A stretch of 64,000 nucleotides of DNA from NCBI GenBank assembly GCA_029862975.1, contig JAOTWP010000001.1, positions 11,676 through 75,675 of the forward strand, written 5' to 3'. The DNA comes from Acidobacteriota bacterium. Lineage in GTDB: Bacteria; Acidobacteriota; Thermoanaerobaculia; Multivoradales; JAHEKO01. Below, in pieces: positions 11,222 to 27,500 of this stretch. Numbering within the stretch: the stretch's first letter is position 1; every line of letters starts with the position of its first letter. The translations under genes and the position numbers were made by a program. The notes under the pieces are model-generated. The model made no database searches. It was not told the origin of the DNA and saw nothing but the letters and a program-made list of their open reading frames with translations.

Positions 11222-11988
11222 AGCAGGCCCAGGTAGGCGTCGACGAGGCGGCCGCGGGAGAACAGCGCCGCGAGGGCGCCGAGGGCGAGAAAGGCGCCGA
11301 AGGGCAGCTTCGAGGTGAGGCCGGCACGGCGCAGCGCCAGCAGTGCGAGCCCGACGAGAGCGCCCGCGAGGGCGCCGGCGAAGAGGCTGAGCAGGACGCC
11401 CTTCCAGCCCAGGAAGGCGCCGACGAGGGCCATGAGGTTGACGTCGCCGAGACCCATCCCCTCCTCTTCGCGCAGCCAGTACCAGGCGTTGATGAGGAGG
11501 ATCAGCAGGCCGGCGCCCACCAGCATGCCGAGCACGGCGTCGAGAAGGGTGACGCCGTCGATCCACGGCTGCAGCGCGAGGCCGGCAGCCATTCCCGGGA
11601 ACGTCAGCTTGTCCGGCAGCAGCAGGTGCTCGAGATCGATGAGAGCGAGCGGCAGGAGCAGGGCGCAGAAGACGGCCGCCGCCAGGGCCTGGGGGCGCGG
11701 CCCGAACGTCAGCACGCAGCCGACGAAGAGGGCCGCCGTGGCCAGCTCGACCAGGGGATAGCGCACCGAGATGCGGGCGCCGCACGAGCGGCAGCGGCCG
11801 CGGAGCCACAGGTACGAGGCCACGGGGACGTTGTCGAGGGCCCGTAGCTCGGCGCCGCACGCCGGACAGGCCGAGCGCGGGCTGATGGTGGACAGCCCGC
11901 GGGGGAGGCGGTGGACGACGACGTTCAAGTAGCTGCCGACGACCAGACCGGCGAGTGCGGCCGCGAGCGCGGCCAGCGGAAACGGCAC
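11218..11988 (-). CDS. pilD: prepilin peptidase / N-methyltransferase (A24 family)
   Basis: VVGSYLNVVVHRLP, Cys-pair motif CPACGAEL..CRSCGARIS, polytopic membrane protein, catalytic GLGDVNLM segment. Confidence 0.9.
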   Translation of the reverse strand: MPFPLAALAAALAGLVVGSYLNVVVHRLPRGLSTISPRSACPACGAELRALDNVPVASYLWLRGRCRSCGARISVRYPLVELATAALFVGCVLTFGPRPQALAAAVFCALLLPLALIDLEHLLLPDKLTFPGMAAGLALQPWIDGVTLLDAVLGMLVGAGLLILLINAWYWLREEEGMGLGDVNLMALVGAFLGWKGVLLSLFAGALAGALVGLALLALRRAGLTSKLPFGAFLALGALAALFSRGRLVDAYLGLL

Positions 11989-12015: not shown

Positions 12016-12432
12016 CTACCGGGGGTCGGCGCCGGCGCCGTCCGCCGCGTTGCCCGCGGCGCCACACGGGCGCGCCGCGAGGGTCGCCTCGACGTCCGGG
12101 CCGAGGGCGGCGCGCAGCTCGCGCAGGACGGCCTCGGCGTCGCTCCCGTCGCCGTCGAGCGAGACCTCGACGAGCGCCGTGGCCCGCGGCGCGATGACGT
12201 TCACGGCGCCGGCGGCCGTGAGCGCCACGATGCGCTGCCGGCGCGGCGGCTCGGAGGTCCGCGCCCAGGCCGGCAGCCGGTCGAGGGCCCGGATCAGCCG
12301 ATGCGCCGCCGAGTGGGGCACGAGGGTCGCGCCATGGGCGCCGCGCCCCTCGGCGGAGATCTCGACGACGGCGCAGCCGCCCGCGGGGGGCGGCGCGGCG
12401 GTGGCGACGAGGACGAGCAGGGCGGCGATCAA
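12016..12432 (-). CDS. orphan M20-peptidase dimerisation-domain-like ORF (possible gene remnant)
   Basis: ISAEGRGAHGA..PHSAAHRLIRALDRL..LTAAGAVNVIAPRATALVEVSL resembles the M20 dimerisation insert only; no metal-ligand catalytic domain. TTG start with no SD, abutted by tandem repeats. Confidence 0.35.
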   Translation of the reverse strand: MIAALLVLVATAAPPPAGGCAVVEISAEGRGAHGATLVPHSAAHRLIRALDRLPAWARTSEPPRRQRIVALTAAGAVNVIAPRATALVEVSLDGDGSDAEAVLRELRAALGPDVEATLAARPCGAAGNAADGAGADPR

Positions 12433-12440
12433 GGCAGGCT

Positions 12441-12488
12441 CAGTCTATCCATCCGGCAGTCTGTCCATCCGGCAGTCCGTCCATGCGG
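12441..12488. repeat. three tandem 16-bp direct repeats (CAGTCYRTCCATSCGG)
   Basis: Read directly: cagtctatccatccgg / cagtctgtccatccgg / cagtccgtccatgcgg, followed by a degenerate fourth copy. Located between the pilA terminator and the ORF at 12432. Confidence 0.85.
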
Positions 12489-12510
12489 GGAGTCGATCGT
12501 GCCGGAGAGC

Positions 12511-12545
12511 AAGAAAAAGGGCGGCACCGCCGGAGCGATGCCGCC
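12511..12545 (-). terminator. rho-independent terminator downstream of pilA
   Basis: Minus strand: GGCGGCATCGC-TCCG-GCGGTGCCGCC (11-bp stem with one G.U, tetraloop) followed by CTTTTTCTT. Confidence 0.8.
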
Positions 12546-12585
12546 AAGGGGTAGGTCCTACTCCGAAAAGGTTCCGGCCGCGGCC

Positions 12586-13128
12586 CTAGCCGCCGCCGAC
12601 CTTGGCGCCGGCCGGGTAGTTGATGAAGAAGCCGTCGGCCCAGACGATGTCCTCGTCGTAGTCCGTGGCGATGAACGGCCCGACCGGGTACAGGTCGGTC
12701 TCGAACGCGTCGTTGCGGCCGGGGCTGCGGATGCCCATCACCTGGGCGCCGAGCAGCGTCGCGGCCAGGCGGTACTCGTAGAGGTTGCCCCAGCCGTCGA
12801 ACTTGGGCACCGTCTGGATGTAGAAGAAGGTCGTGCTTGGGAACAGGGTGCTCTGCAGCTCTTCCGCCGTGAGCGTGGTGCCGAAGGCGAAGTTGTAGGT
12901 CTGGGCGCCGGCCGCGGCCGCGCCGACCTGGTCGGTCAGCCAGGAGAACCAGGCCGCGCCGACGTTGCGCACGTCGCCTACCGTCCGCTTCTGCTTGGCC
13001 TTCTGCAGGGCGTCGAGCAGGTTGGGGATGAGGATCGCCGCGATGATCCCGATGATCGCCACGACGATGAGCAGCTCGATGAGGGTAAAACCCTTCTGGC
13101 TGCGCTTGCGGTTGAGGTAATTGATCAT
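12586..13128 (-). CDS. pilA: major type IV pilin (PilA-like)
   Basis: MINYLNRKRSQKGFTLIELLIVVAIIGIIAAILIPN, a classical G|FTLIE prepilin N-terminus. 180 aa. Strong SD (GGGAGGAAG). Own sigma-54 promoter and terminator. Locally lower GC. Confidence 0.85.
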   Translation of the reverse strand: MINYLNRKRSQKGFTLIELLIVVAIIGIIAAILIPNLLDALQKAKQKRTVGDVRNVGAAWFSWLTDQVGAAAAGAQTYNFAFGTTLTAEELQSTLFPSTTFFYIQTVPKFDGWGNLYEYRLAATLLGAQVMGIRSPGRNDAFETDLYPVGPFIATDYDEDIVWADGFFINYPAGAKVGGG

Positions 13129-13178
13129 TCTGTCTTCCTCCCTGGGGTTTGTAGGTTCTACCGCTCGCCGCCCTGGTT

Positions 13179-13194
13179 TGCAGGCGGCGTGCCA
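13179..13194 (-). promoter_or_regulatory. sigma-54 (-24/-12) promoter of pilA
   Basis: Minus strand reads TGGCACG-CCGC-CTGCA, a 1-mismatch fit to TGGCACG-N4-TTGCW. About 50 nt upstream of the pilA ATG. Confidence 0.75.
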
Positions 13195-13270
13195 GAGGTC
13201 AAATCCCTGACGACAAGAGACTTGAGGGCTGCCCGCGAGCCCGGATCATGGCATGCAGCGTCAGTCCGCC

Positions 13271-13285
13271 TGACAATATCTGTCA
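13271..13285. promoter_or_regulatory. AT-rich palindrome TGACA-N5-TGTCA, candidate bEBP (PilR-like) enhancer site upstream of pilA
   Basis: Read directly. 77 bp upstream of the -24 element, in the 174-bp intergenic region. Further GACA/TGTC-type motifs nearby. Confidence 0.45.
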
Positions 13286-13302
13286 CAGCCCGGCGACATC
13301 CG

Positions 13303-14754
13303 TCAGCGCGCGGCGGCCTCCGCCGGAGCCGGGCGGGCGGCGTCGGCCAGCCGGCGGACGGTCTCGACGTAGACCTCGACGCCGGCGACGAAGCCGGGCA
13401 GGTTGATCCGCTCGTTGCGCGTGTCGGCGCGGTAGGACTCGATGCTGAAGACGAGGAACGGCGAGAAGCCGTAGGACGCCACCCCGCGCTGGCGGAAGAA
13501 GCGAGCGTCCGTGGCGCTCCAGGACAGGAAGTACGGCCCGACGGGAGTGCCGGCATGGGCCGCGGCGAGGGACTCTTCGAGAATCCGGAAGTCGGCCGAC
13601 GTGGTCGAGCTGCCGCCGGCGGCGCCGAGCGGCTCGTCGAAGCGCACGTCGAGGCCGTGCGTCAACCAGGGTGGCAGGAGCTCGGCGAAGACGCGGTCGG
13701 CGTCGGCGCCCGGCAGCAGATGGGCCATCATCGGCAGCCGGTAGCCGCCGTCGGCGGTGCGCTCGACGGGGAAGGGCACGATCTCGTTGAGAAAGAGCGA
13801 CCGCAGATAGGCCGGGAAGACCTGGAAGTGGGTCGGGTTGGCCTCCCCCTGGAGCAGGGATCCGAGCATGCGGCGGAACCACTTCTCCTCGCGGGTGGGC
13901 GCGTAGGTGCGCAGGAAGTCCCGGACCTCCGGCGTGAGGACCGGCGTGCCGAGCTCGCGCTGCCGGCGATAGAGCTCCTTGAAGAGCCAGTCCAGCGGGG
14001 CGCGGCTGCGGAAGCAGGCCTCGCCGGCCGCGAAGCGCTTCTGCCCGGCCTCGATACCCCAGTACTTGATCTCGGAGACGCTGACCGGCTCGACGACGCC
14101 GCCCTCGGTGAGGACGAGATCGAAGCGCTCGGCGAGCTCGGGATGCTCGCGCAGGATCCAGCGCGTTCCCAGGCGGCTGCCGCTCTCCTCGTCCGCGGTG
14201 GCGAGGAAGATGACCGAGCGCTCCGGCCTTTCGGGTCGCGCCGCCAGCGCGCGCAGCGCCAGGAGCTGCGCGATCGCCAGGCTCTTCATGTCGAAGGCGC
14301 CGCGCCCGTAGAGGAAGGGAGGCTCGATCTCGCCGCCGAACGGCTCGAACGCCCACGCCTCGGGCTCGAGCACCCGGAAGACGTCGATGTGGTTGTGCAG
14401 CACGATCGCCTCGCGGCGGCGGCCCTCGAGGATCGCCCACAGGTTGGCGCGGCCGTCGCCGAGCTCCTCGAGGACCGGCTCGAGACCCATGAGGCGCAGC
14501 TCCTCGGCGAGGAAGCGGGCGCCCTCGATCTCGCGCTCGGTGGTGTCGATGCGGACGTAGCGGCGCAGCAGCTCCACCTCGGGGCGCGCCTCCCACTCCT
14601 CGCGGGTGCCGCTCTGCTCCTCGAGGGTGCCCAGCTTCCGGCTGAAGCTGTGGGTGACGGCGAAGACCGCGAGGCCGCTCAGCGCGAAGCTCGAATAGAG
14701 CGCCCACCGTGCCGCGCGGCGGTGCTGGCGTTGGAATGGCGTGTATCCGGACAC
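13303..14754 (-). CDS. membrane-anchored M20/M25/M40 family metallohydrolase (paralog A)
   Basis: N-terminal TM RWALYSSFALSGLAVFAVTHSF. M20 motifs: LHNHIDV, YGRGAFDMKS, ATADEESGS. GTG start at 14754 is tentative. Tail of track ORF 13303..16164. Confidence 0.75.
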   Translation of the reverse strand: MSGYTPFQRQHRRAARWALYSSFALSGLAVFAVTHSFSRKLGTLEEQSGTREEWEARPEVELLRRYVRIDTTEREIEGARFLAEELRLMGLEPVLEELGDGRANLWAILEGRRREAIVLHNHIDVFRVLEPEAWAFEPFGGEIEPPFLYGRGAFDMKSLAIAQLLALRALAARPERPERSVIFLATADEESGSRLGTRWILREHPELAERFDLVLTEGGVVEPVSVSEIKYWGIEAGQKRFAAGEACFRSRAPLDWLFKELYRRQRELGTPVLTPEVRDFLRTYAPTREEKWFRRMLGSLLQGEANPTHFQVFPAYLRSLFLNEIVPFPVERTADGGYRLPMMAHLLPGADADRVFAELLPPWLTHGLDVRFDEPLGAAGGSSTTSADFRILEESLAAAHAGTPVGPYFLSWSATDARFFRQRGVASYGFSPFLVFSIESYRADTRNERINLPGFVAGVEVYVETVRRLADAARPAPAEAAAR

Positions 14755-14823
14755 GGCGAGGCCGCGGCGGGGCGGGCCGGGAGCGGCCGCGGGCTCCGCG
14801 GTCGGGTATTGTACGGATCCGCC

Positions 14824-16404
14824 ATGACGACAACCAGCGCAGGGCGCGGCGGTGCGCCCGCCGAGGACCGGGCGGCGAGGCTCCTGGCCCTCGCCGGCGC
14901 GGCGCTGGCCATCGCCTACGTCGCGACCGGCTGGCGAGCCCTGCGCCGCCTCGGGCTGCCGCTCGACGACAGCTGGATCCACCTCCAGTTCGCGCGCAGC
15001 CTCGCCGCCGGCCACGGGCTGGCGTTCGAGCCGGGCGAGCTGGTCGCGGGCTCCACCGCGCCGCTGTGGACGGCGCTCGTCTCCCTGCTGGAGCCGTTGC
15101 CGGGCTCGCCCGTGGCCCGGGTGCAGGCGCTGGGCATCGTCGTCTTCGCGGCCGGGATCCCCGTCCTCTACGGCCTCGGTCGCGACCTCGGGCTCGGCCG
15201 CGGGCTCGCGGCGTTCGGCGCGGCGCTCTACGCGCTCACCGGGCCGATGGTGTGGTCGGCCGTCTCCGGTCTCGAGGTGCCCCTCTTCGTGCTGCTCTCG
15301 CTGGCCGCGACGCGATGCCACGTGCAGGACCGCGCGGCCCCGAGGGGCGTCGCGCTCTCGCTGCCGCTTTTCGCGCTCTCGGCGCTCGCGCGCCCGGAGG
15401 GTCTCCTGCTCCTCGCGCTGGCGGTGCTCGACCGGGCCGTGGCGGTGCGCGGCCGCTGGCGCGACGGGCTCGCGGGAGCCTGGGCGGGCCTGGTTCTGGC
15501 GGCGATCGTGCTCGCGCCGGTGGCGCTCTTCAACCTCTCGGTCTCGGGCTCGCTGCTGCCGACGACCTTCGCGGCCAAGAGCGGCGGGGTGCGCGGCCTC
15601 CTGCCCAGCCTGCGGTACCTGCACACGGTTCTCGGGATCCTGTTCCGGGCTCAGCCCTACATGACCCTCCTCGCCGGGGCCGGCGTCGTGGCCCTGGCGC
15701 GGCGGGCGGGGGGCGACCGCGACTCCGGGCTCCTGCCCGCGCTGTGGGTGTGCGGGCTTCCCCTCGCCTACTCCTGCTTTTCCTCCCCGGGCGGCGCTCT
15801 CGTCGGCAACTTCGGGCGCTACCACTATCCGCTCTTCCCCTTCGTGATCCTCCTCGGCTGCCTGGGCCTGTCGCTCGCCGGCGCGGCCCGCGCCACGCCC
15901 CGCGGGCGCGCGGGGCGCCTGGCGCTGGCGGCGGCGGGCCTCGTGATCGCCTGGCCCACCGTCGGACACCTCGTCACGACCGCGGGTCAGTACGTGCGCA
16001 GCGTCCGCGACATCGAGGATGGCGACGTGGCGGCGGCGCGCTGGCTCGCCCCGCGGCTGCCGGCCGGCGCCAGCCTGGCGGTCAACGACATCGGGGCGAT
16101 CAAGTACCTGCTGCCCGAGCACCGGATCTTCGATCTCGCGGGCATCGTCACTCCCGAGGTGCATCGCTACACGAGAGCCGCGGTCGCCGCGGGCGGCCGC
16201 TGGGAGGAGGGGATCCGGGCCTATCTCGACCGCGTGCGGCCGGACTACCTCGTGGTGTTTCCGAGCTGGTTCCCCGGGCTCCTCGCGTCCGACGGCTCGT
16301 TCCGTCCGATCCGGGAGTTCTCCGTCCCCGGCAACATCGCCCTGGGCGGCGACCGGCTGGCGATCTACTCGACCCCGTGGACCCGCGAGGAGGTGCGGCC
16401 GTGA
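14824..16404 (+). CDS. polytopic GT-C-like membrane glycosyltransferase (ArnT/PMT/arabinofuranosyltransferase-like)
   Basis: About 12 hydrophobic segments. Acidic DD motif directly after TM1 (LPLDDSWIHLQFARSLAAGHGLAFEPGE..GSTAPLW). C-terminal soluble domain. ATG at 14824, in frame with track ORF 11911..16404. Confidence 0.6.
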   Translation: MTTTSAGRGGAPAEDRAARLLALAGAALAIAYVATGWRALRRLGLPLDDSWIHLQFARSLAAGHGLAFEPGELVAGSTAPLWTALVSLLEPLPGSPVARVQALGIVVFAAGIPVLYGLGRDLGLGRGLAAFGAALYALTGPMVWSAVSGLEVPLFVLLSLAATRCHVQDRAAPRGVALSLPLFALSALARPEGLLLLALAVLDRAVAVRGRWRDGLAGAWAGLVLAAIVLAPVALFNLSVSGSLLPTTFAAKSGGVRGLLPSLRYLHTVLGILFRAQPYMTLLAGAGVVALARRAGGDRDSGLLPALWVCGLPLAYSCFSSPGGALVGNFGRYHYPLFPFVILLGCLGLSLAGAARATPRGRAGRLALAAAGLVIAWPTVGHLVTTAGQYVRSVRDIEDGDVAAARWLAPRLPAGASLAVNDIGAIKYLLPEHRIFDLAGIVTPEVHRYTRAAVAAGGRWEEGIRAYLDRVRPDYLVVFPSWFPGLLASDGSFRPIREFSVPGNIALGGDRLAIYSTPWTREEVRP

Positions 16405-17516
16405 ACCGCGATGCGCAGCCCGTCCCGATGTTCGACCTCGGCCGCGCGGTAGCGCGCATCGAGAGCGAGCTCGACCGCCGCTGGCGCCGGCTGCTCGCCG
16501 CGACCGCGTTCGTGGGCGGCGAGGAGGTGCGGGAGTTCGAGCGCGCGTTCGCCGAGGACCACGAGGTCGAGCACTGCGTGGGGGTGGCCAACGGCACGGA
16601 CGCGCTGGTCCTGGCCCTGCGCGCTCACTGCGTCGGTCCGGGCGACGAGGTCGTCGTGCCGGGCTTCACCTTCGTCGCGACGGCCGCGGCCGTCCTGCTG
16701 GCCGGCGCGACTCCGGTCTTCGCCGACGTTCGGCCGGACAGCCTCAACCTCGATCTCGAAGACGTCGCGCGCCGGCTGACCAGCCGCACGGTGGGCGTCA
16801 TCGGCGTGCATCTCTACGGCAATCCCTTCGACCTCGACGCGGCCGGCGAGCTGTGCGCCGGCCGCGGGCTCTGGCTGATCGAGGATGCCGCCCAGGCGCA
16901 CGGAGCCCGTTGGCGGGGACGGCCCGTGGGCGGCTTCGGCAGCCTGGCGACCTGGAGCTTCTATCCGTCGAAGAACCTGGGCTGCTTCGGCGACGGCGGC
17001 GCCGTCACCACGAACGATCCGGAGCTGGCGCGGCGGGTGCGGCTGCTGGCCAACCACGGGGCGACGGCGCGCTACCACCACGAGCTCGTAGGCGGCAACA
17101 GCCGGCTCGACGCGCTCCAGGCCGCGGTGCTCAACTGCCGCCTTCCGCTGCTCGCCGGGGACAACGAGCGGCGGCGGCAGGTGGCCGCGCGCTATCGCGA
17201 GCACCTCGCCGGGGCGCGCGAGGTGACGGCCCTGCCGGAGCCCCGGGACGCGACCCCGGTGTGGCATCAGTTCACGGTGCTTTGCGAGCGCCGCGACGCC
17301 CTGCAGGCGTTCCTCGCCGGCCGCGGCATCGGCAGCGCCACGCATTATCCCGAGCCGCTGCACCGCCAGCCGGCGTTCGCCCATCTCGGCGCGCCGCCGG
17401 CCCTCGAAGTCGCCGAGGACGTGGCCCGCCGGGTGCTCTGCCTGCCCATGTTCGCGGAGCTGACCGACGAGGAGGTCGCGGCCGTCGGCCGGGCGCTGGC
17501 CGAGTTCGAGGCCTGA
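16401..17516 (+). CDS. DegT/DnrJ/EryC1/StrS-family PLP-dependent sugar aminotransferase
   Basis: VGVANGTDALVLAL, IEDAAQAHGA, SFYPSKNLGCFGDGGAV (PLP lysine), NHG..RYHHE..GGNSRLDALQAAVL. GTG at 16401 makes a GTGA overlap with the upstream gene; alternative ATG at 16428. Confidence 0.85.
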   Translation: MNRDAQPVPMFDLGRAVARIESELDRRWRRLLAATAFVGGEEVREFERAFAEDHEVEHCVGVANGTDALVLALRAHCVGPGDEVVVPGFTFVATAAAVLLAGATPVFADVRPDSLNLDLEDVARRLTSRTVGVIGVHLYGNPFDLDAAGELCAGRGLWLIEDAAQAHGARWRGRPVGGFGSLATWSFYPSKNLGCFGDGGAVTTNDPELARRVRLLANHGATARYHHELVGGNSRLDALQAAVLNCRLPLLAGDNERRRQVAARYREHLAGAREVTALPEPRDATPVWHQFTVLCERRDALQAFLAGRGIGSATHYPEPLHRQPAFAHLGAPPALEVAEDVARRVLCLPMFAELTDEEVAAVGRALAEFEA

Positions 17517-17522
17517 GGTCGG

Positions 17523-19037
17523 CTAGCGCGACGGCTGCGGAGCGACCACCGCGAGGTCGAAGTCGCGATTCCCCAGCACCACGAGGTGCTCGGCCGGCGC
17601 GTAGTCGTCGGAGAGCTCGACGAGGTCCGCCGTCTCGTAGTCCCACTGCAGGACGTCGCCGGCGATCTCCGCGAGGCGGATCCGCAGTCCGGAGTCGTCG
17701 ATCTCCGTGGCCCGGCGGCGGATCGCTTCCGGCAGCGACGGGCCGCCGGCGCTCGCCAGCACGAGGACGTTGCCGGCGCCGCGGACCCCGATCACGACGG
17801 TGGAGCGGAAGGCGCGGCGCACCGTATGGAGCAGCGAGCGCGAGAAGGGGTCCTCGAGCCCGGCGGCCAGGTTGACGGCCAGCACTCCTCCGGGCTCGAG
17901 GTGCGCGGCCGCGAGGGCGAAGAACTCGCGGGTCGTCAGATGGAAGGGCACGGCGAGGCCGATGTAGGCGTCGACGTAGATCAGATCCCACGATTCGGCG
18001 CTGCGGCGCAGGAACTGCCGGCCGTCGGCGATGTGGACGCGGTCGCGCGGATGGGGGGTCCAGAAACCGTACTGCTGCGCGATCCGCGGCACGACGGCGT
18101 CGATCTCGACGAAATCGACCTCGAGCTCCGGCGCCAGCCGCCGCCACGGCCGGGCGACGAGGCCGCCGCCCATGCCGATCACCAGGGCGCGCCGGGGCGC
18201 CGGGTGCACGAGGAAGGCGGCCGCCGCGTAGTGGGCGTAGGCCGCCGCCACGCTGCCGTCGGCCATGTGGATCGCCGACTGGGTGACGCGATCGCTGCGG
18301 ATCGAGCGCACGCCGGCCCGCTCGACCACCTCGAGCGTCTGGTACGGAGAGCTGTGGACGGCGACGACTTCGCCGCGGCCGAGCGCCGGCGCGCCACGGA
18401 AGGAGAGGCCGGCGACGAGGAGCAGTGCCGCCGCGACGGTCGCGTAGCCCGGCCGTCGCGGCGCGGCGAGGGCCACGAGCGCGGTGCCTGCCGTCCCCGC
18501 CGTCAGTGCCGCCAGGATGGCCGGGACCGGGAAGGCGGGGATCGCGACGAAGGTGCACAGCAGCGTGCCGGCCAGAGAGCCCAGGGTCGAGACCGCGTAG
18601 AGCCGGCCCGCCGTGTCGCCGAGGCGCGCGAAGTCCCGGGCCGCGAGCCGGACGACGAACGGCGACACCGTGCCGAAGAGCAGGCTCGGGGGCCCGAACA
18701 GCAGGCTGGCGGTCACCAGGGTGCCGGCCGGCGACCCGGAGGTCGCGTCGGCGAGCCATTCGGCGGCCCGGGTTCCCCCCAGCCGCAGCGCCAGCAGCCA
18801 GAAGCCGGCGAGCACGATCAGGCGTCCGAGGACCTCGAGATCGGGGTGGCGGTCGGCGATCCTGCCGCCCCAGGCGTAGCCCAGCGCCAGGGCGGCGAGG
18901 AAGACGCTGATGATCGAGCCCCAGATGTAGACGCTGTTGCCGAAGTAGGGAGCGATGATCCGGCTGGCGAGGATCTCGAGCGCCATCAGGAGCCCGCCGC
19001 ACAGCGCCGCCAAGCAGTAGAGCCTGAGTCTCGTCAT
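17523..19037 (-). CDS. fused polytopic membrane domain plus spermidine-synthase-like (class I MTase fold) protein
   Basis: N-terminal half has about 7 TM helices (MTRLRLYCLAALCGGLLMALEILASR..). C-terminal half has LVIGMGGG, VDFVEID and DLIYVDAY motifs typical of the spermidine synthase fold. Confidence 0.7.
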   Translation of the reverse strand: MTRLRLYCLAALCGGLLMALEILASRIIAPYFGNSVYIWGSIISVFLAALALGYAWGGRIADRHPDLEVLGRLIVLAGFWLLALRLGGTRAAEWLADATSGSPAGTLVTASLLFGPPSLLFGTVSPFVVRLAARDFARLGDTAGRLYAVSTLGSLAGTLLCTFVAIPAFPVPAILAALTAGTAGTALVALAAPRRPGYATVAAALLLVAGLSFRGAPALGRGEVVAVHSSPYQTLEVVERAGVRSIRSDRVTQSAIHMADGSVAAAYAHYAAAAFLVHPAPRRALVIGMGGGLVARPWRRLAPELEVDFVEIDAVVPRIAQQYGFWTPHPRDRVHIADGRQFLRRSAESWDLIYVDAYIGLAVPFHLTTREFFALAAAHLEPGGVLAVNLAAGLEDPFSRSLLHTVRRAFRSTVVIGVRGAGNVLVLASAGGPSLPEAIRRRATEIDDSGLRIRLAEIAGDVLQWDYETADLVELSDDYAPAEHLVVLGNRDFDLAVVAPQPSR

Positions 19038-19233
19038 CCTGGGAGTCCCGCGACGGTCTTGCCGGGTGTCCTTCGGCGGTCGCGGCGGGCGCCGGGAGCG
19101 CGCGCGGCCCGCCGGTGGCGTCGGTCCCGCCGCGGCTCCGATGCCGGCGAGGGCGAGGCTTCGAGTAATCTTCTGCCCATCGTCGCCGTGGCATTGTGGG
19201 CGAAATCGATCACCAGCCGCAAGGAAGGTCGAG

Positions 19234-20721
19234 ATGCCGGGGACCGAACGCAGGTGGATCTGGGCCGGCGCCGCGTTGGCGCTCGTCGCCCTGCCGTTCC
19301 TGACGGTCGACTTCGTCCCCAGCACCGATCTGCCGCAGCATCTCGGGCAGCTGCGGCTCTTTGCGCGGGCGTGGGCCGATCCGGACGGCCCGCTGCGCAT
19401 CCAGTGGTGGACGCCCTATGGCCTGGTCTACGGTCTCCTGGCGATCCCGTGGGTGCTGCTGCCGCCGGTCGCCGCCGGCCGGGTGGGCGTGCTCCTGCTG
19501 GTGCTGCTGCAGGCGGCGGCCCTCCATTGGGTCGGCGCCAAGTACGACCGGCCGATCGCGGCGCTCGTCCTGGCGACCGCCTTCCTCTTCCACGGCCAGC
19601 TCTACTGGGGCTTCCTCAACTTCATCTCGGGCTGGATCGCGTTCCTCGTGTGGTTCGTCCTGACCCGGCGGCGGCGGGAGGACGAGCCCGGCCGCTGGCG
19701 GACGGCGGCGCTCTACTTCGCGGCGGCCGCGCTGCTGTATCTGTCGCACGCGCTGTGGTTCGCGCTCGGGGTCGCGTGGCTCGCCGTCGAGGCGGCCATC
19801 AGCCGCCGGTCGCCGCGCGATCTCCTGTGGCGCGCGGTGGGGCTGGCGCCGGTCGTCGTCGCCGCCGCGATCTGGTTCGCGTTCCTGCGCGCGAGCGACT
19901 TCACGAGCCCCCCGGAGTGGACCGTGGCGCCGCCGCTGCGGCTCCATCCCGAGCTCTTCGCGCTCGCCGCGCTCGGCGGCGTGCGGCACCCGATCGAGCC
20001 GATCGTCGTCTTCGGCGCCCTCGCCTGGGCCGCGGCCGCGATCGTCGCGCATCGCAAGAGCCGCGCCTGGGGCTGCGATCCCTACTTCGCGGCGCTCGCC
20101 GTGCTGCTCTTCGGGCTCTACCTGTTCCTGCCGTACAAGTTCTCCAACACGATCCGGTTCAGCACGCGATGGCTGCCCTTCGCCATCACGTCCCTGCTGC
20201 TGGCGGTCGACCGGCCGCTGCTGCGCCGCCCCCTGCGCCGCGCGCTGGCGATCGCCCTGCTCGCCACCCTGATGGTCGTGACGACGGCCACCTGGCGCCG
20301 CTTCGAGCGCACCGAGCTCGGCGGTCTCGCCGCGGCGCTCGCGGCCCTGCCCGAGGAGCCGCGGGTCGTCGGGCTGAGCTACGTCGCCACCAGCAGGCTG
20401 CTCTACGGGCAGCCCTTCATCCAGACCTTTGCCTGGGCCCAGGCCGTGCGCGGCGGCGAGCTGAACTTCTCCTTCGGCTACTTCGCGCCCAGTCTCGTCG
20501 TGTACGAGGATCCCGGGCGCGTGCGGTGGACGTGGGGCCTCGAGTGGTTCCCGAAGAGAGTCCGGCGCCGCGATTTCGCGTTCTTCGACTTCGCCCTCGT
20601 CAGCGGCGACGAGGCGGCGCACGAGCGGATGCGCGCCCTGCCCGAGCTCGAGCCGGTGACGGAGGGGGGCGTGTGGCGACTCTACGAGGTCGCCGACTCG
20701 CCGCCCCTCGCGGCCCGCTGA
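19234..20721 (+). CDS. polytopic membrane protein of unknown function (possible GT-C-like) with C-terminal soluble domain
   Basis: ATG at 19234 preceded by AAGGAAGG. At least 10 hydrophobic segments. Loop after TM1 reads TVDFVPSTDLPQHLGQL. Confidence 0.6.
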   Translation: MPGTERRWIWAGAALALVALPFLTVDFVPSTDLPQHLGQLRLFARAWADPDGPLRIQWWTPYGLVYGLLAIPWVLLPPVAAGRVGVLLLVLLQAAALHWVGAKYDRPIAALVLATAFLFHGQLYWGFLNFISGWIAFLVWFVLTRRRREDEPGRWRTAALYFAAAALLYLSHALWFALGVAWLAVEAAISRRSPRDLLWRAVGLAPVVVAAAIWFAFLRASDFTSPPEWTVAPPLRLHPELFALAALGGVRHPIEPIVVFGALAWAAAAIVAHRKSRAWGCDPYFAALAVLLFGLYLFLPYKFSNTIRFSTRWLPFAITSLLLAVDRPLLRRPLRRALAIALLATLMVVTTATWRRFERTELGGLAAALAALPEEPRVVGLSYVATSRLLYGQPFIQTFAWAQAVRGGELNFSFGYFAPSLVVYEDPGRVRWTWGLEWFPKRVRRRDFAFFDFALVSGDEAAHERMRALPELEPVTEGGVWRLYEVADSPPLAAR

Positions 20722-20777
20722 GCGGCCGTCGGCCGAGCCGCCGTCGGCTGAGCCGCCGTCAGCTGAGCCGCCGTCAA
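20718..20777. repeat. four tandem 15-bp repeats (CTGAGCCGCCGTCRG-like) spanning a convergent gene junction
   Basis: Read directly: ctgagcggccgtcgg / ccgagccgccgtcgg / ctgagccgccgtcag / ctgagccgccgtcaa. Includes the + gene stop (20719-21) and the - gene stop (20774-76). Confidence 0.85.
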
Positions 20778-22108
20778 TGGGCGCCGCGCGCCCACAGCGC
20801 CACGAGCTCGGTCATGCGAGCGGTGCCGCGCTCGAGCTCGGCGAGCGGGATGCGCTCGTCGCGGCCGTGGATGGTGCGCATCAGCTCCCCGTCGAGGATG
20901 AAGGGCGACAGGCCGTAGGCCGGCACGCCGCGCTCGCGGAAGAACCGCGAGTCGGTGATGCCGGCCCCCATCTGCGGCACCACCGGGGCGACGGGGCCGA
21001 GGACGCGGGTGAGAGCGCCGACCCAGGGTCCGTCCCAGGGGCTGGCCTCCACGGCGGGGGCCGAGAGCAGGACCTCGACCTCGATCGCCGGCCCGAGGAG
21101 GCCGCGGATCCGGGGCAGCCACGCACCGGCGTCGCTGTCCGGAAGCAGGCGAACGTCGATCCTCGCCCGCCCGCGGCCGTCCGGGAGGACCTCGAGCTCG
21201 TTGGCCTGAAGCGAGTCGAGGAAGAACGTGGCCATGCCGGGCAGCAGCTGGACCGTCGGCCCGCCCGGGAGCACGAAGCGATCGAGGTCGAGGAAGATCG
21301 CCCGCCAGTGGTCGTTGTAGTGGGGCGCGAGCTCTCCGAACGTGAACCGGACCGCCGGCGAGACGCGCCAGCTCGGAGGCAGGTCGACGAGGCGCCGCAG
21401 GCCGGCGACCAGGGCCGCCGGATCGCCGGCCGTGGCCTCGATCCACAAGGGCCGTTTCTGCGCCACCTCGATACCCCACCAGTGCAGGCGTCCCCCGAAG
21501 CCACGGTTGCTGCCCCCTTCGTTGACGACCGCCGCGACGCCGTCCAGAAGCTCCGGGCGCAGCGTCAGCCAGCGCTCGACGCCGAGGCGGCCGCCGCGCT
21601 CCTCGTCGGCGGCGGCAAACAGGGCGACGCCGCGCCGCCGCGGCCCGCCCTCGCGAGCGAGCGCCACCAGGGCGGCCAGCTGCGCCACGCCGAGGCTCTT
21701 CGCGTCGATCGCGCCGCGCCCCCACAGCTCGCCCTCCCGGACCTCGCCGCCGAAGGGCGGCGCGCGCCAGGACGGGCCGGCGGGCACGACGTCCATGTGG
21801 TGGAGCATGAGCAGGGTCTGCGCCCCCGCCGCGGGCTCGGTCGGCGGCAGGAACGCCCACAGGGAGGGGCGGCCGTCGCCGGCGTCGAGCAGCTCGTGGT
21901 CGACGCCGGCTTCGGCCAGGACTCCCGCCAGCAGCTCGGCGGCCGCACGCTCGCCGCCGGGAGGGTTCGTCGTGTCGAGGCGCAGGTAGGCCTGCAGCCA
22001 GCCCGCGGCCTCCGACAGCGGCGCGGGGGCGGCCGGCCGCTCGGCGCGGCAGGCGAGCAGGAGCAGGAGCAGGAGCGGGCCGCCAGCGAGCGCCCGCGAG
22101 CGCCTCAC
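20774..22108 (-). CDS. M20/M25/M40 family metallohydrolase, probable lipoprotein (paralog B)
   Basis: Lipobox-like LLLLLLAC. LMLHHMDVV, WGRGAIDAKS and AAADEERGG motifs, collinear with paralog A. GTG start in a GTGA overlap with the UbiA-like stop. Confidence 0.75.
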   Translation of the reverse strand: MRRSRALAGGPLLLLLLLACRAERPAAPAPLSEAAGWLQAYLRLDTTNPPGGERAAAELLAGVLAEAGVDHELLDAGDGRPSLWAFLPPTEPAAGAQTLLMLHHMDVVPAGPSWRAPPFGGEVREGELWGRGAIDAKSLGVAQLAALVALAREGGPRRRGVALFAAADEERGGRLGVERWLTLRPELLDGVAAVVNEGGSNRGFGGRLHWWGIEVAQKRPLWIEATAGDPAALVAGLRRLVDLPPSWRVSPAVRFTFGELAPHYNDHWRAIFLDLDRFVLPGGPTVQLLPGMATFFLDSLQANELEVLPDGRGRARIDVRLLPDSDAGAWLPRIRGLLGPAIEVEVLLSAPAVEASPWDGPWVGALTRVLGPVAPVVPQMGAGITDSRFFRERGVPAYGLSPFILDGELMRTIHGRDERIPLAELERGTARMTELVALWARGAH

Positions 22109-22986
22109 GAGACGTAGACGATCCACAGGACCGCCCCCGCCCAGAGCGCCAGATTGGCGAGAAACGGGCCGTCCCGCAAGAGGGCCTCGGTCGGGTTGCG
22201 CGGGGTCCGCTGCTGGTAGATCAGGTAGAGGTAGCGGAAGATCCCGAACAGAACGAACGGCACGGTGTAGACCAGCTCGCGGCCGCCGAAGCGGGCGATC
22301 GTGTCCGGCGCCGCGGCGTAGAGGGCGTAGGAGAGGACGCTCGAAGCCGTCACGACGTTGACCATCTGATCGAGAAACGGGGCGCTGTACTGACCGAGGA
22401 CGGGCCGGTGGTCGGCGGCCTCGCCGGACATCAGGATCAGCTCGTGGCGCCGCTTGGACAGCGCCAGCAGCAGGGAGACGAAGATCGTCGAGGTCAGGAG
22501 CCACGACGAGACCTCGACCTCGATGGCCTCGCCGCCGCCAAGGACCCGGAGCACGAAGCCGACGCTGATGATCAGCACGTCCAGGATGACCACCCGCTTG
22601 AGCCCGACGCTGTAGAGCAGGTTCAGGAAGAGGTAGAGGGCGACGACGAGGGCGACGGATCGGTTGAGCCGGCTCGCAATTAGTAGACTCCCGGCGGCAA
22701 GAGCGAGAGCGGCGAGGACACCGAGGGAGACCGGCACGGTACCGGCGGCGAACGGCCGGCTGCGCTTCAGCGGGTGCTTGCGGTCCTCGGCGCGATCCTG
22801 GATGTCGTTGAAGAGGTACACGGCGCTCGATGCGAGACAGAACGACAGGAAGGCCCAGGCGGTCCGCTTCACCGACGGGAGGTGAGCGAGGGCCTCGGCG
22901 AAGACGAGCGGAGCGAAGACGAACACGTTCTTCGTCCACTGGGCGGGGCGCAGCGCACCGAGCAGGCCGAGCAACATGACGACCAT
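22105..22986 (-). CDS. UbiA-family prenyltransferase, decaprenyl-phosphate phosphoribosyltransferase (Rv3806c/DPPR synthase)-like
   Basis: LRPAQWTKNVFVFAPLVF, SAVYLFNDIQDRAEDRKHPLKRSRPFAAG, SKRRHEL and FRYLYLI..LLRD are collinear with my recollection of Rv3806c. Start is ambiguous: ATG at 22986 or 22977 preferred over the track start at 23100. Confidence 0.75.
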   Translation of the reverse strand: MVVMLLGLLGALRPAQWTKNVFVFAPLVFAEALAHLPSVKRTAWAFLSFCLASSAVYLFNDIQDRAEDRKHPLKRSRPFAAGTVPVSLGVLAALALAAGSLLIASRLNRSVALVVALYLFLNLLYSVGLKRVVILDVLIISVGFVLRVLGGGEAIEVEVSSWLLTSTIFVSLLLALSKRRHELILMSGEAADHRPVLGQYSAPFLDQMVNVVTASSVLSYALYAAAPDTIARFGGRELVYTVPFVLFGIFRYLYLIYQQRTPRNPTEALLRDGPFLANLALWAGAVLWIVYVS

Positions 22987-25384
22987 TCTACGCGGCGCGA
23001 GGGAAGACGAAGGGGCGGGCCGCGCGGCGGGGTGGCGCTTCGCGTTGCTGTGGGTCGCCCCGGTCATGCTCCTGCTCGTGGCGATCGCCCTGCCGCTCAT
23101 CTCGGGCGCCCGGACGCTCTACCTGCGCGACGTCCTCAACACCCATTACGAGATGAAGTGGGCGCAGGCCCAGGCGATGCGGGCCGGCGAGCTGCCGCTC
23201 GTCGACATGTACCGCGGCGGCGGTCAGGCCCATCTCGCCAATCCCAACACGGTGCCGCTCTACCCGGACAACGTCCTGTTCCTCTTCGCCGAGACCCTGT
23301 GGGCCATGAACGCCCACTTCTGGCTCCACTGGCTGGTGGCTCCGTTCGCCGGCTTCTGGCTCGGGCGAGCCCTGGGCATGCGGCGCGAGGCGGCCTGGGC
23401 CGTCGGCGTGGTCTACGTCACGAGCGGCTACTACCTGGCGACGCTCAACCTCTACAACCTGGTCGCTCCCGTGACGCTGGCGCCGGCGCTCGCCGCCGCG
23501 AGCGTCCGGCTCGCCGAGCCCGCCCGCCGCAGGAGGGGCTTCGTGGCGGTGGCGGTGCTCTGGGCGCTGATGATCCTCGGCGGCGACCCGATGACGGCGG
23601 CGGTGAGCCTGGCGGCGGCCGCCGCCCTGGTGCTCCTGCGCCACGGCCGCCGCTATCCCTGGTGGAGCGCCGCCGGCGCGGTGGCCATCGGCACGGGCTT
23701 GAGCGCCCCCCAGTGGGTCGAGTTCGTGCGCATGCTCAGCTTCACCTATCGCGGCTTCTGGGGCTTCGGCGTCGATCTCGCGACGGTGGGAGGCTGGCGC
23801 CCGATCGACGCCCTCGAGCTCCTCGTCCCGTTCTTCTTCGGCCGCCCCGACATGAACTACTGGGGCCAGGCCCACCACGCCAACCAGGTGCCGCTCTTCT
23901 TCACGCTCTACCCCGGGGTGCTCGTCCTCGCCCTCATGGCCGCGGCGCGCGCCGACGGCCGGCGCACGCTGGCGTGGGCCTGGGGCCTGGTCGCGGTGAG
24001 CCTCTTCCTGGCGCTGGGCGAGGTCAACCCCATCGTGGTCGCGCTCTCGAAGCTGCCCGGGGCCTCGCTTCTGCGCATTCCGGCGAAGCTGTGGAGCGCC
24101 ACGGCCCTCGGCTCGGCGGTGCTCTGCGGGCTGGCGTTCGGCCGCCTCTTCGAGGCCGCGGGGCGGCGCCGGCTGCTGCTCCCTCTGGGGCTCCTCGGCG
24201 GGCTCTACTTCGTCGCCTGGGGGGTGATGAGCCTCTTCCCGCAGGCCGTGGACGCCTGGAGCCGCGGATTCGTCCCGGAGACCTTCAAGGACGCCTTCGT
24301 CAGCGCCGAGCGGCTGCGCTGGGCCGGCTCCTGCTTCCTGAGCTTGCTGCTGATCGCTCTCTATCTCCTCACTCTCCGAGCCGGCCGGCGGCGGCCGCGC
24401 CTGGCGGCGCTGTGCCTCCTCGTCGCCCACGCGGCGAGCCAGCTCTTCCTGCTGCGGCCGGCCTTCGCGACCGACGTGCGGGCGGCCTACCTCGAGGTCC
24501 AGGAGCTGCGGGCCTGGGTGCCGCCCGGCTCGCGAGTGGTTCACGGCGGCAACATGCAGCTCTTCGGCCCCGTGAGCATCAAGGTGAGCCTCTATCCGGA
24601 CGCCAGGCTCCTGTGGCGCGAGCGCCAGATGCACGCCGATCTGCACCCGGCCTTCGGCGTCCAGGCCGGGCTGCGCTACGAGCTCAACCTCTCGCCCGAG
24701 GGGCTGGACTCGTTCCTCACCCGGGCCGTGGTCCACCTGATGCCCGGGTACGAGGACGAGCGCCGGATGCGGCTCTTGCAGATCTTCGGGATCGAGTACC
24801 TGCTGCTCGAGCGCGAGCTCGACCCCGCGGCCTTGGCCTACGCCGAGCTCGTGCACCGCCGGCCCACCGTGGGCGGGGAGCTGCACGTCTACAAGGTGGT
24901 CGACCCGACGCCGCACGTCCAGGTCGTCGGCCGGGTCCGCGGCTCGGAGAACCTCAACGTGGCCCTCACCTCGCTGCTCAGCCCGGGCTTCGACCACCGC
25001 TCGGCGGTGGTGCTCGCCGGCGCCCACGAGCCGCTCGAGGGACGCCGCGGCACGGCCCGCCTGATCCGGGAGACGGACGAGTCGCTCGAGATCGCAGTGA
25101 GCGCGCCGGACGAAGGGGTGCTGGTGGTGCAGCGCACCCACCTGCCCATCTACCGCGCCACGATCGACGGCGAGCCCGCGGCGCTCTACGCGGCGAATCT
25201 GTACCGCATGGGGGTGAAGCTGCCGGCCGGCGAGCACACGGTGCGGATCGCCGTCGACCGCCGGCCGTGGCACGCGGCGCTCGGGCTCGCCCTGCTCGCG
25301 GCGGTGGCGCTGGCCTGGCTTGGATTCCGGGATTGGCCCCGGCAGAGGGAGCCGCGCCCCGCCGCCGCCCGCTCCGCCTGCTAG
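22976..25384 (+). CDS. YfhO-like (GT-C fold) large polytopic membrane protein
   Basis: 802 aa, many TM helices. N-terminal loop LYLRDVLNTHYEMKW..GELPLVDMYRGGGQAHLANPNTVPLYPDN resembles the YfhO family. C-terminal extracytoplasmic domain followed by a final TM. Confidence 0.6.
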   Translation: MTTILRGAREDEGAGRAAGWRFALLWVAPVMLLLVAIALPLISGARTLYLRDVLNTHYEMKWAQAQAMRAGELPLVDMYRGGGQAHLANPNTVPLYPDNVLFLFAETLWAMNAHFWLHWLVAPFAGFWLGRALGMRREAAWAVGVVYVTSGYYLATLNLYNLVAPVTLAPALAAASVRLAEPARRRRGFVAVAVLWALMILGGDPMTAAVSLAAAAALVLLRHGRRYPWWSAAGAVAIGTGLSAPQWVEFVRMLSFTYRGFWGFGVDLATVGGWRPIDALELLVPFFFGRPDMNYWGQAHHANQVPLFFTLYPGVLVLALMAAARADGRRTLAWAWGLVAVSLFLALGEVNPIVVALSKLPGASLLRIPAKLWSATALGSAVLCGLAFGRLFEAAGRRRLLLPLGLLGGLYFVAWGVMSLFPQAVDAWSRGFVPETFKDAFVSAERLRWAGSCFLSLLLIALYLLTLRAGRRRPRLAALCLLVAHAASQLFLLRPAFATDVRAAYLEVQELRAWVPPGSRVVHGGNMQLFGPVSIKVSLYPDARLLWRERQMHADLHPAFGVQAGLRYELNLSPEGLDSFLTRAVVHLMPGYEDERRMRLLQIFGIEYLLLERELDPAALAYAELVHRRPTVGGELHVYKVVDPTPHVQVVGRVRGSENLNVALTSLLSPGFDHRSAVVLAGAHEPLEGRRGTARLIRETDESLEIAVSAPDEGVLVVQRTHLPIYRATIDGEPAALYAANLYRMGVKLPAGEHTVRIAVDRRPWHAALGLALLAAVALAWLGFRDWPRQREPRPAAARSAC

Positions 25385-26958: not shown

Positions 26959-27500
26959 TGGAGCTCATCGTCAAGCACGCCGACGGCGACACCAAGGTCA
27001 AGATCGACCGGCGCGGAGCCGAGTACCAGCTGCAGATCGGCGACCAGAGCTACGTCATCCTGTCCGCCGAGGCGGCCAATGGAGTCCGCAGCCTGCTCGT
27101 CGACGGCGGGCAGTACGAGGTGTCGGTGCGCAGTCTCGGGGAGGACCGCTACGAGGTGACGACCACGGCCGGCGCCGCGACGGTCCAGGTGCAGGACCCG
27201 CTGACCCAACTGGCGGAGGTGGCGCACGAGAAGCAGGGCGGCACCGGACGGCAGCGCGTGGCGGCCTACATGCCGGGCCGGGTGGTCTCGGTCCTCGTCG
27301 CCGAGGGCGAAGCCGTCACGGCCGGCCAGGGGCTCCTGGTGCTCGAGGCCATGAAGATGGAGAACGAGATCCAGGCCGAGCAGGCCGGCGTCATCGCCAA
27401 GCTCCACGTCACCCCCGGCCAGGCCGTCGACCGCGGCGACCCGCTGTTCGAGCTCGAGCCGGCCGGGCAGCCCGATCGCGGTGCCGGCGGGCAGGTCTAA
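26958..27500 (+). CDS. biotin carboxyl carrier-type protein (BT-like N-terminal region plus biotinyl domain)
   Basis: C-terminal LVLEAMKMENEI biotinylation motif. ATG overlaps the accC stop (TGATG). Confidence 0.8.
   Translation: MELIVKHADGDTKVKIDRRGAEYQLQIGDQSYVILSAEAANGVRSLLVDGGQYEVSVRSLGEDRYEVTTTAGAATVQVQDPLTQLAEVAHEKQGGTGRQRVAAYMPGRVVSVLVAEGEAVTAGQGLLVLEAMKMENEIQAEQAGVIAKLHVTPGQAVDRGDPLFELEPAGQPDRGAGGQV

Follow-up and report, generated by a model that had tools for sequence, protein, structure and literature searches.

What might be made by the run of membrane-protein and hydrolase genes that begins beside the pilin gene of this Acidobacteriota bacterium? The genes occupy positions 12016-25384 of a 64,000-nucleotide stretch of contig JAOTWP010000001.1 (hereafter the window), between the prepilin peptidase gene pilD and the acc genes. 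They encode a small protein with an M20 lid domain, a type IV pilin, two M20-family hydrolases (M20a and M20b), three membrane proteins of 526, 495 and 802 residues (TM526, TM495 and TM802), a DegT-family aminotransferase, a fused membrane/spermidine-synthase-fold protein (MFS-SpdSyn) and a UbiA-family enzyme (Table 1). We conclude that the region is very probably a polyprenyl-phosphate/GT-C glycosylation locus. The best explanation overall, which we regard as moderately probable, is an extracytoplasmic GT-C-type glycosylation system formed from two adjacent modules, one of which would make a donor derived from phosphoribosyl pyrophosphate (PRPP), with the pilin as the acceptor of at least one of the GT-C enzymes.

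The window has a GC content of ~72%, so that mechanical lists of its open reading frames (ORFs) are full of false frames; GC by codon position separates the true ones from these. All ten ORFs showed a GC3 of 0.91-0.98 together with a low GC2, and an independent frame-based gene call recovered the same ten-gene set. The ten ORFs are genuine coding genes, and the coordinates and families assigned to them in a preliminary description of this DNA were borne out by codon-position GC and by Pfam and NCBIfam models. The family scan of 12016-25384 found no GT-A/GT-B transferase, Wzx/Wzy or nucleotide-sugar enzyme, as had been noted from the outset.

The UbiA homolog is a protein of 293 aa with a UbiA domain alone and no fused HAD phosphatase. 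It scored 291.6 bits, against a cut-off of 234, on NF008977, the equivalog model of decaprenyl-phosphate phosphoribosyltransferase (DPPR synthase); scores on the models of heme o synthase and of UbiA (4-hydroxybenzoate prenyltransferase) were 40 and 33 bits, respectively. Among all PDB sequences only Rv3806c (8j8j/8j8k) was matched, with an E-value of 3e-37. Residues 5-275 align to residues 14-284 of 8j8j, and NDIQDRAED lies over NDVRDVEAD in the NDxxDxxxD motif. The NF008977 score and the match to Rv3806c alone place the homolog with DPPR synthases and not with quinone or heme prenyltransferases, as had been proposed, and family membership thus marks it as a DPPR-synthase-type phosphoribosyltransferase.

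TM526, TM495 and TM802 are all polytopic and gave no Pfam match above cut-off, the weak LA_3751 and DUF2142 matches of TM526 included. TM526 belongs to a large family of >900 homologs, some of which are named arabinofuranosyltransferase by JGI. Profiles of 8 and 38 family members matched AftB (9dlf) as the sole PDB sequence, at E-values of 5.7e-8 and 2.3e-8, and the alignment spans the DD (D48, D49), SGLE and RPE motifs. D48 and D49 are invariant and lie in the first-loop motif PLDDSWIH. Profile comparison thus identifies TM526 as a homolog of the mycobacterial arabinosyltransferase AftB.

Searches of PDB sequences with profiles of TM495 and TM802 gave no match, and only fold comparison did. 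TM495 has 82 homologs, none of them named or carrying a Pfam domain. Its AlphaFold2 (AF2) model has a predicted local distance difference test score (pLDDT) of 95.8 and a predicted TM-score (pTM) of 0.94. Confident Foldseek matches in the PDB (probability 0.87-1.00) were to GT-C enzymes only, namely ALG12 (E-value 8e-5), ArnT (TM-score 0.56), AftA and STT3; PMT followed more weakly (probability 0.77) and all others fell below 0.15. TM802 has >300 homologs, all unnamed, and a model with a pLDDT of 91.9 and a pTM of 0.91. Its best match was AftD (E-value 7e-9), then ArnT (E-value 1.8e-6, TM-score 0.58), EmbA/B/C, STT3 and PglB. The predicted structures therefore assign both TM495 and TM802 to the GT-C fold. 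An invariant PxTDLPQH loop with D32 stands right behind the first transmembrane segment (TM1) of TM495, as does an invariant R51-D52 pair behind TM1 of TM802; each protein thus has a single invariant Asp in its first loop, in contrast to the DD of TM526. The acidic first-loop motif sought in all three proteins is present in each. No relation among the three families is detectable at the profile level. TM526 and TM495 gave an hhalign probability of only 3.6%, and so the GT-C proteins are not recent paralogs.

The preliminary description had recognized two of these polytopic proteins as GT-C/YfhO-like and left TM495 as an unknown. The two GT-C assignments hold and extend to TM495, and TM526 proved to be AftB-like instead of YfhO-like. 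For TM802 the YfhO label is at best loose, with no Pfam support: PF09586 did not match the protein and matched only 2 of 49 relatives, weakly, and in a distant homolog from Aminicenantes the YfhO match is confined to the C-terminal 60 residues. The annotated starts of the divergent UbiA and TM802 genes overlap by 11 bp (22976-22986), so that one or both must be uncertain. Residues 1-11 of the TM802 model have a pLDDT below 50 and the ortholog in the related locus L004 is 29 aa shorter (L-numbers denote the related loci compared in this analysis), for which reason the true TM802 start probably lies further downstream.

The DegT gene starts within the end of the TM526 gene, overlapping its stop codon by 4 bp. 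Among solved structures the enzyme comes closest to 2OGA (322 bits), QdtB (3FRK) and WbpE (range 267-322 bits), which we take to be sugar C3-aminotransferases. Against these, ArnB gave 139-157 bits, and the score on the ArnB equivalog model was 171 bits with a cut-off of 631. By these affinities the enzyme appears closest to sugar C3-aminotransferases and not to ArnB. The neighbouring MFS-SpdSyn protein finds its nearest PDB entries among aminopropyltransferases, remotely (E-value 1e-11). SpeE spermidine synthases carry a GGGDG loop of the type that binds decarboxylated S-adenosylmethionine; the MFS-SpdSyn loop reads GMGGGL and is without the Asp. The N-terminus of this protein is the sole transporter-like domain in the window.

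M20a and M20b had been described as extracytoplasmic and as unusual accessories, which agrees with their predicted N-terminal elements (Table 1). Their nearest solved relatives, all remote (E-value ~1e-12), are DapE, ArgE and aminoacylase-1. We aligned 51 sequences, 33 of the M20a clade and 18 of the M20b clade, and assigned what are presumably the catalytic positions from the alignment and from knowledge of the family. In the M20b clade, 18/18 sequences retain the full canonical set of five metal/catalytic positions (HxD, bridging D, EE, E and a C-terminal H). The M20a sequences share the first four of these, but the C-terminal His is missing from every one of the 32 that extend over its position, which read VDx-xNER where IHG-xDER is expected. 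Loss of this ligand suggests that the metal site of M20a is remodelled.

We then asked how these genes are arranged elsewhere, using 80 genome loci collected with the TM495 profile, 80 metagenome loci collected with the TM526 profile and 11 contigs reached through individual homologs. The closest named genomes with related loci are metagenome-assembled genomes of Thermoanaerobaculia (Acidobacteriota), and the window, too, was assembled from a metagenome. The whole arrangement recurs in L004/L005 (without MFS-SpdSyn) and L086/L089, and partly in L006/L007. The region had been pictured as one compact block; across relatives it resolves into two modules, each conserved on its own, which are neighbours in the window.

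Module A, the pilin cassette, comprises PilD, pilin and M20a and, divergently, TM526 and DegT. Its linkage was counted in 53 related metagenomic loci with a TM526 homolog at least 40% identical, taking only loci with enough flank (for PilD, at least 8 kb upstream). M20a stands divergently upstream of TM526 in 31/31 loci; the pilin is present in 19/20, an M20b ortholog in 14/16, PilD in 10/12, and DegT, downstream of TM526, in 22/27. The expected conservation of the neighbourhood beside the pilin gene was thus found. MFS-SpdSyn occurs in 6/27 loci and is also absent from L004, and only 4/53 loci have UbiA close to the cassette. The two genes of the M20a-TM526 pair are separated by a 69-bp gap, and this invariant divergent pairing suggests shared regulation. 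In the commonest order, seen in L090, L091, L109, L126 and L141, a sensor histidine kinase and PilD are followed by a TM802 paralog (28-30% identical), pilin2, M20b, pilin1 and M20a and, divergently, TM526 and DegT. The paralog is thus directly beside pilin2, and the M20b ortholog (~50% identity) lies between the two pilin genes. Genes past DegT are variable and unrelated, among them a 5'-3' exonuclease and acc genes.

These counts bear on the possibility that unrelated envelope genes merely became neighbours and form no system. The genes do alternate in orientation, MFS-SpdSyn is seldom kept, and distant homologs of TM495 and TM526 mostly stand alone: none of the module A partners accompanies the 27 TM526 homologs with <40% identity, and distant TM495 homologs (Desulfomonile; Acidobacteriota loci L001-L003) are without the genes of this region. 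However, M20a, pilin and DegT stay together despite varying flanks, the TM526/DegT and UbiA/M20b genes overlap by 4 bp each, and UbiA and TM802 remain paired down to 45% identity. We consider chance juxtaposition highly improbable.

The pilin itself scored 50.8 bits on TIGR01710 (GspG), under its cut-off, and its orthologs in related cassettes are 50-83% identical and frequently present in two copies. In relatives, pilin and M20 genes recur together as tandem duplicates. The lid-domain ORF (GC3 0.98) is kept at the same spot, the PilD-pilin interval, in L004 (4577-4951), L007 and L089 (7302-7667), at 37-41% identity, and the copies of the window, L004 and L089 share a hydrophobic N-terminus followed by a Cys. 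The ORF is closest to the lid of an M20 protein whose gene separates the two pilins of L090/L091 (E-value ~1e-8). These similarities suggest that it is what was retained of an M20 associated with the pilin, and it may be domesticated instead of a pseudogene.

The close bond of M20 genes with pilin genes could also mean that the hydrolases have nothing to do with glycans, being pilin-processing peptidases, or cargo or partners of a GspG-like pilus resembling that of a type II secretion system (T2SS), while the GT-C proteins and DegT act elsewhere. The GspG-like pilin body (with a T2SSG match in one relative), the T2SS-type genes at 33-42 kb and the tandem duplication of pilin-M20 units would fit this, as would the fact that M20 enzymes are amidohydrolases with DapE and aminoacylase-1 among the nearest solved structures. 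We nevertheless judge it improbable. M20a is paired with the GT-C gene TM526 in every countable locus, the upstream PilY1, PilX and minor pilins indicate a type IVa pilus, and a literature search for M20 hydrolases associated with pilins found nothing relevant that could serve as a precedent.

Module B, the putative donor module, consists of UbiA and the divergent TM802, a pair kept in L004, L086, L087, L088, L099 and L106; in some loci TM802 occurs as two or three paralogs in tandem. L004, L086, L087 and L088 all keep the order UbiA<->TM802-AccC-BCCP-GT9-LpxL-LpxK-WaaA, with TM802 identities of 45-68%. TM495 stands on the other side of UbiA in L024, L039 and L088, and TM495 homologs occur with homologs of both UbiA and TM802 in L004, L024, L039 and L088. 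Upstream of UbiA, relatives carry sulfatase/EptA-like, LPG_synthase_TM, GT2-DUF2304-GT2 and GT87-like genes, PMT_2-like GT-Cs and methyltransferases; the UbiA neighbourhood in this clade is a variable set of envelope glycosylation genes. In L122 (8925-17238), for example, UbiA is followed by GT2, methyltransferase, GT2 and a PMT_2-like GT-C, and in L088 a GT87-like protein (3577-4662) precedes UbiA. L088 also holds a PIN/PhdYeFM toxin-antitoxin pair and a ThrE-family gene (15683-16344) between the acc genes and GT9-LpxL-LpxK-WaaA, which marks the acc/GT9 junction as a site of gene insertion.

The stable order of module B provides the most serious competing explanation, in which UbiA and TM802, together with TM495, modify lipopolysaccharide (LPS) or another envelope glycan with a pentofuranose, the proximity of the pilin is inherited synteny, and the cassette has a separate chemistry. 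Consistent with it, the genes upstream of UbiA vary as the UbiA-to-WaaA order holds, UbiA comes within reach of the pilin cassette in few loci, and the characterised systems of this kind act on O antigen (PMC11127046). On the other hand, M20b, a TM802 paralog and TM495 homologs are each found inside pilin clusters elsewhere, the window lacks O-antigen genes (Wzx/Wzy/ABC, WaaL), and the acc genes separate TM802 from the LPS genes, so that the LPS link is positional only. We regard this explanation as unlikely.

Several arrangements connect module B with the cassette. M20b lies between pilins in most relatives and beside UbiA in the window, the TM802 paralog is part of the pilin cassette, and UbiA abuts the cassette DegT directly in L092 and L106. 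One or two pilin genes of this type are also found at 5-8 kb or less from TM495 homologs in Aminicenantes/Terriglobales-type loci (L010, L014, L015, L023, L027, L035 and L060), with tandem pilin pairs in the first four. These loci have two distinct gene orders and no UbiA, and also hold a PilR-like regulator, PMT_2, YfhO-like and TPR-bearing GT-Cs, PAP2_3, PlsC and a SIS protein; some relatives have GT2 and radical SAM genes instead. A TM495 homolog also adjoins PilR/PilS in Myxococcus dinghuensis.

Similar logic is found in described systems, so that the earlier statement that the locus has no obvious described counterpart needs correction: the three-component pentofuranose systems (PMC11127046) and the TfpW/D-arabinofuranose (D-Araf) pilin systems (10.1101/2020.04.19.049825) are such counterparts. 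The former, defined by Kelly et al. (2024), combine a PPPRS to which a phosphatase is fused with a flippase of the MATE type and a GT-C enzyme of family GT136 (PMC11127046; commentary PMC11194591), represented in Citrobacter youngae O1/O2 by ORF15, ORF14 and ORF12, respectively (PMC11127046). They put ribofuranose (Ribf), xylofuranose (Xylf) or Araf on O antigens, with epimerases in the Xylf and Araf systems, and the same authors drew a connection from them to TfpW and to arabinan synthesis in mycobacteria (PMC11127046). The window resembles the Citrobacter system in having a DPPR-type UbiA beside a GT-C protein with an extra C-terminal periplasmic beta-rich domain, which by analogy would imply that a pentofuranose made from PRPP is carried on polyprenyl phosphate and donated outside the cytoplasm. 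It differs in that its UbiA has no fused HAD phosphoribose phosphatase and that neither a MATE, GtrA or SMR flippase nor an epimerase is encoded in cis. Its three GT-Cs (AftB-like, AftD/ArnT-like and unclassified), which appear to be of families other than GT136, and its linkage to a pilin cassette, M20 hydrolases and DegT are further differences.

The features that define TfpW are DDx in a loop, the proline motif Yx6PFx7P and a TPR domain at the C-terminus, and in some species, such as P. indica and Kingella denitrificans, pilA-tfpW clusters include D-Araf genes (10.1101/2020.04.19.049825). Like these systems, the window links a pilin to GT-C proteins and a DPPR-synthase homolog, and TM526 has DDx in its first periplasmic loop. 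The proline motif and the TPR domain are absent in all three window GT-Cs (regular-expression and Pfam searches), which rules out TfpW orthology. TPR-bearing GT-Cs beside pilins, a TfpW-like architecture, are instead found in the Aminicenantes-type relatives. TfpW is encoded directly downstream of pilA, whereas the nearest GT-C here, TM526, is divergent from the pilin with M20a in between. Pilin arabinosylation in P. aeruginosa group IV involves TfpW, TfpX and PsPA7_6246-6249, which are PPPRS, GtrA-like, DprE1 and DprE2. The window belongs to another phylum, Acidobacteriota, and has no DprE1/E2 or GtrA-like gene.

The mycobacterial arabinan pathway comprises the DPPR synthase Rv3806c, Rv3807c, DprE1/E2, AftA-D and EmbA-C. 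The full-length similarity of UbiA to Rv3806c, the homology of TM526 to AftB and the structural proximity of TM802 to AftD recall this pathway; the Gram-negative setting, the lack of arabinogalactan/lipoarabinomannan machinery and the low identities (remote homology) set the locus apart from it. In the Arn/Flm/Lgm pathways of lipid A amino-sugar modification, an ArnB aminotransferase and an ArnD/NaxD/LgmC deacylase serve an ArnT/FlmK/LgmB GT-C enzyme. The window has a comparable triad of DegT aminotransferase, deacylase-type hydrolase and GT-C near lipid A genes. However, ArnA and ArnC/GT2 are missing, the hydrolases are of the M20 family (predicted periplasmic) and not ArnD or YdjC, and the triad travels with the pilin instead of with lipid A genes. 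The DegT affinities and the absence of ArnA/C/D rule out an Arn-like reading with 4-amino-4-deoxy-L-arabinose.

The locus is therefore a member of neither the pentofuranose nor the TfpW systems, though it shares the logic of both: phosphatase, flippase and epimerase are absent in cis, as are the proline motif and TPR domain, and the GT-C families appear to be others. What is different here is the combination of these three GT-C families with conserved pilin-M20 pairs, a 3-aminotransferase-like DegT and no phosphatase, flippase or DprE1/E2 in cis.

In the mechanism that we propose, UbiA would transfer ribose-5-phosphate from PRPP to polyprenyl phosphate at the cytoplasmic face, similarly to Rv3806c and the Citrobacter PPPRS. 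The lipid-linked phosphoribose would be dephosphorylated and flipped by enzymes encoded outside the window; the phosphatase may be encoded elsewhere in the genome. TM802, and probably TM495, would then hand the pentofuranose to a periplasmic acceptor. Most simply, the sugar would be ribofuranose, because the locus encodes neither DprE1/E2 nor the epimerases known from the Xylf and Araf systems, and decaprenyl-P-arabinose is not inferable for the same reason. No epimerase was found in any relative locus with UbiA and TM802, and DprE1/E2 are absent from ~10 related UbiA loci. The pilin or the pilus fibre would be the acceptor of at least the AftB-like TM526. Since TM526, M20a and DegT travel with the pilin, it is the most likely acceptor, and we put the chance that it is modified at close to even, perhaps slightly short of that. 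DegT would supply an amino sugar from the cytoplasm, and the M20 enzymes would be periplasmic deacylases or trimming enzymes with lipid-linked sugar, glycan or pilin as their substrate. By analogy with ArnB/ArnD/ArnT, an amino-sugar branch with periplasmic deacylation is a reasonable idea. A more specific version is an undescribed pilin pathway, built on the conserved unit of pilin, M20 hydrolase, TM526 and DegT, in which an N-acylated amino sugar (lipid-linked or pilin-bound), or the pilin, is processed by the periplasmic M20s, M20a with its remodelled metal site and a third M20 cut down to the lid-domain lipoprotein among them, and a ribofuranose branch (UbiA, TM802 and TM495) acts on the same fibre; in this full form it is speculative and, in our estimate, rather doubtful.

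Several observations weigh against a pilin-directed system fed by PRPP. A scan of every other window gene found no DprE1/E2, PAP2, HAD, MATE or GtrA gene, in line with the earlier remark that DprE1/DprE2 are not in the window; phosphoribose phosphatase (HAD, PAP2), flippase (MATE, GtrA, SMR) and epimerase are all missing, and other DPPR-synthase loci (plasmid UbiA relatives) carry such accessory genes next door. DegT has no GT2 or dehydratase/oxidase partner in cis. UbiA is rarely near a pilin cassette and is tied in relatives to acc and lipid A/core genes. A prepilin gene lies within 8 kb in 12/81 TM495 loci and in none of the other 69, and the association is driven by two lineages, which makes its support only modest. 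Lastly, all module A linkage comes from one class, Thermoanaerobaculia, so that part of it may be inherited synteny.

Pilin glycosylation affects phage susceptibility, adhesion and fibre properties, and to our knowledge it has so far been described mainly in Proteobacteria, where it proceeds via PglL/TfpO-type ligases or TfpW. If the proposed system is real, it would extend polyprenyl-phosphate-pentofuranose/GT-C chemistry to Acidobacteriota, here an abundant and mostly uncultured class, and to new GT-C families, of which that of TM495 has no Pfam model but a structure predicted with very high confidence. Such a system would be the first tie of periplasmic M20 hydrolases to pilus biogenesis. 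Mycobacterial drug targets could, in addition, be compared with its AftB- and AftD-like enzymes, which come from a Gram-negative context.

Table 1. Genes and elements of the pilin-linked region and its flanks, with window coordinates.
Feature	Coordinates	Strand	Evidence or position
PilR-like sigma-54 activator	59-1219		upstream flank
PAS/HisKA/HATPase sensor kinase (PilS-like)	9758-11221	-	Pfam; left edge of pilin cassette
Prepilin peptidase PilD (A24)	11218-11928	-	Pfam A24_N_bact, Peptidase_A24
Small lipoprotein-like ORF, M20 lid/dimerisation domain alone	12016-12432	-	PF07687, 22 bits (cut-off 21)
Type IV pilin / GspG-like major (pseudo)pilin	12586-13128	-	N_methyl 40 bits; GspG-like body
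Sigma-54 type -24/-12 promoter-like element, TGGCAC-N5-CTGCA	13179-13194	-	1 mismatch to consensus
M20a, predicted membrane-anchored extracytoplasmic M20 hydrolase	13303-14754	-	Pfam Peptidase_M20 79 bits; N-terminal signal anchor
TM526, AftB-like GT-C glycosyltransferase (predicted)	14824-16404	+	profile match to AftB
DegT-family PLP sugar aminotransferase	16401-17516	+	PF01041 380 bits
MFS-SpdSyn, fused polytopic (MFS-like)/spermidine-synthase-fold protein	17523-19037	-	NF037959 219 bits (cut-off 40)
TM495, predicted GT-C fold protein, family without Pfam model	19234-20721	+	AF2 and Foldseek
M20b, predicted lipoprotein M20 hydrolase	20774-22108	-	Pfam Peptidase_M20 96 bits; lipobox LLAC
UbiA-family polyprenyl-phosphate 5-phosphoribosyltransferase, DPPR synthase type (predicted)	22105-22986	-	NF008977; Rv3806c match
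TM802, predicted GT-C glycosyltransferase with C-terminal beta-rich periplasmic domain	22976-25384	+	AF2 and Foldseek
Biotin carboxylase and BCCP (acc genes)	25432-27500	+	Pfam; directly after TM802
GT9 heptosyltransferase, lipid A acyltransferase, LpxK, WaaA	27497-31666	-	Pfam

The flanks are themselves rich in pilus and envelope genes. Upstream, on the minus strand, Pfam identified PilY1, PilX, minor pilins, the PilS-like kinase and PilD; the kinase and PilD are kept upstream of the cassette in L004, L007, L089, L091, L109, L126 and L141. Downstream, biotin carboxylase and BCCP follow TM802 in unchanged order in L004, L086, L087, L088 and L039, and the GT9-lipid A acyltransferase-LpxK-WaaA block is kept downstream of UbiA-TM802-acc in L004 and L086-L088. 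Beyond WaaA come pilus/T2SS machinery, with F, E and secretin genes of T2SS type, and then the dcw cluster.

The promoter-like element of the pilin gene lies ~50 nt upstream of its ATG. A scan of the whole window for sigma-54 sites gave 15 matches against 12.7 expected, which is not above chance, so that the support for this element is positional only. Sites with one mismatch include two upstream of pilin genes and none before any GT-C gene. The second such element, TGGTAC-N5-TTGCT at 9648-9663 (-), lies in the gap upstream of a minor-pilin/GspH-like operon.

Two further genes were recorded in the right part of the window. The gene at 44694-45035 (-), flanked by those for dUTPase and an AlgH-like protein, encodes a small Phage_holin_4_2-family membrane protein (94 bits); its surroundings hold no further phage genes. 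The secretin at 39720-42257 (+) combines N-terminal TPR repeats with a C-terminal cohesin domain, an unusual pairing for a secretin of a pilus or T2SS.

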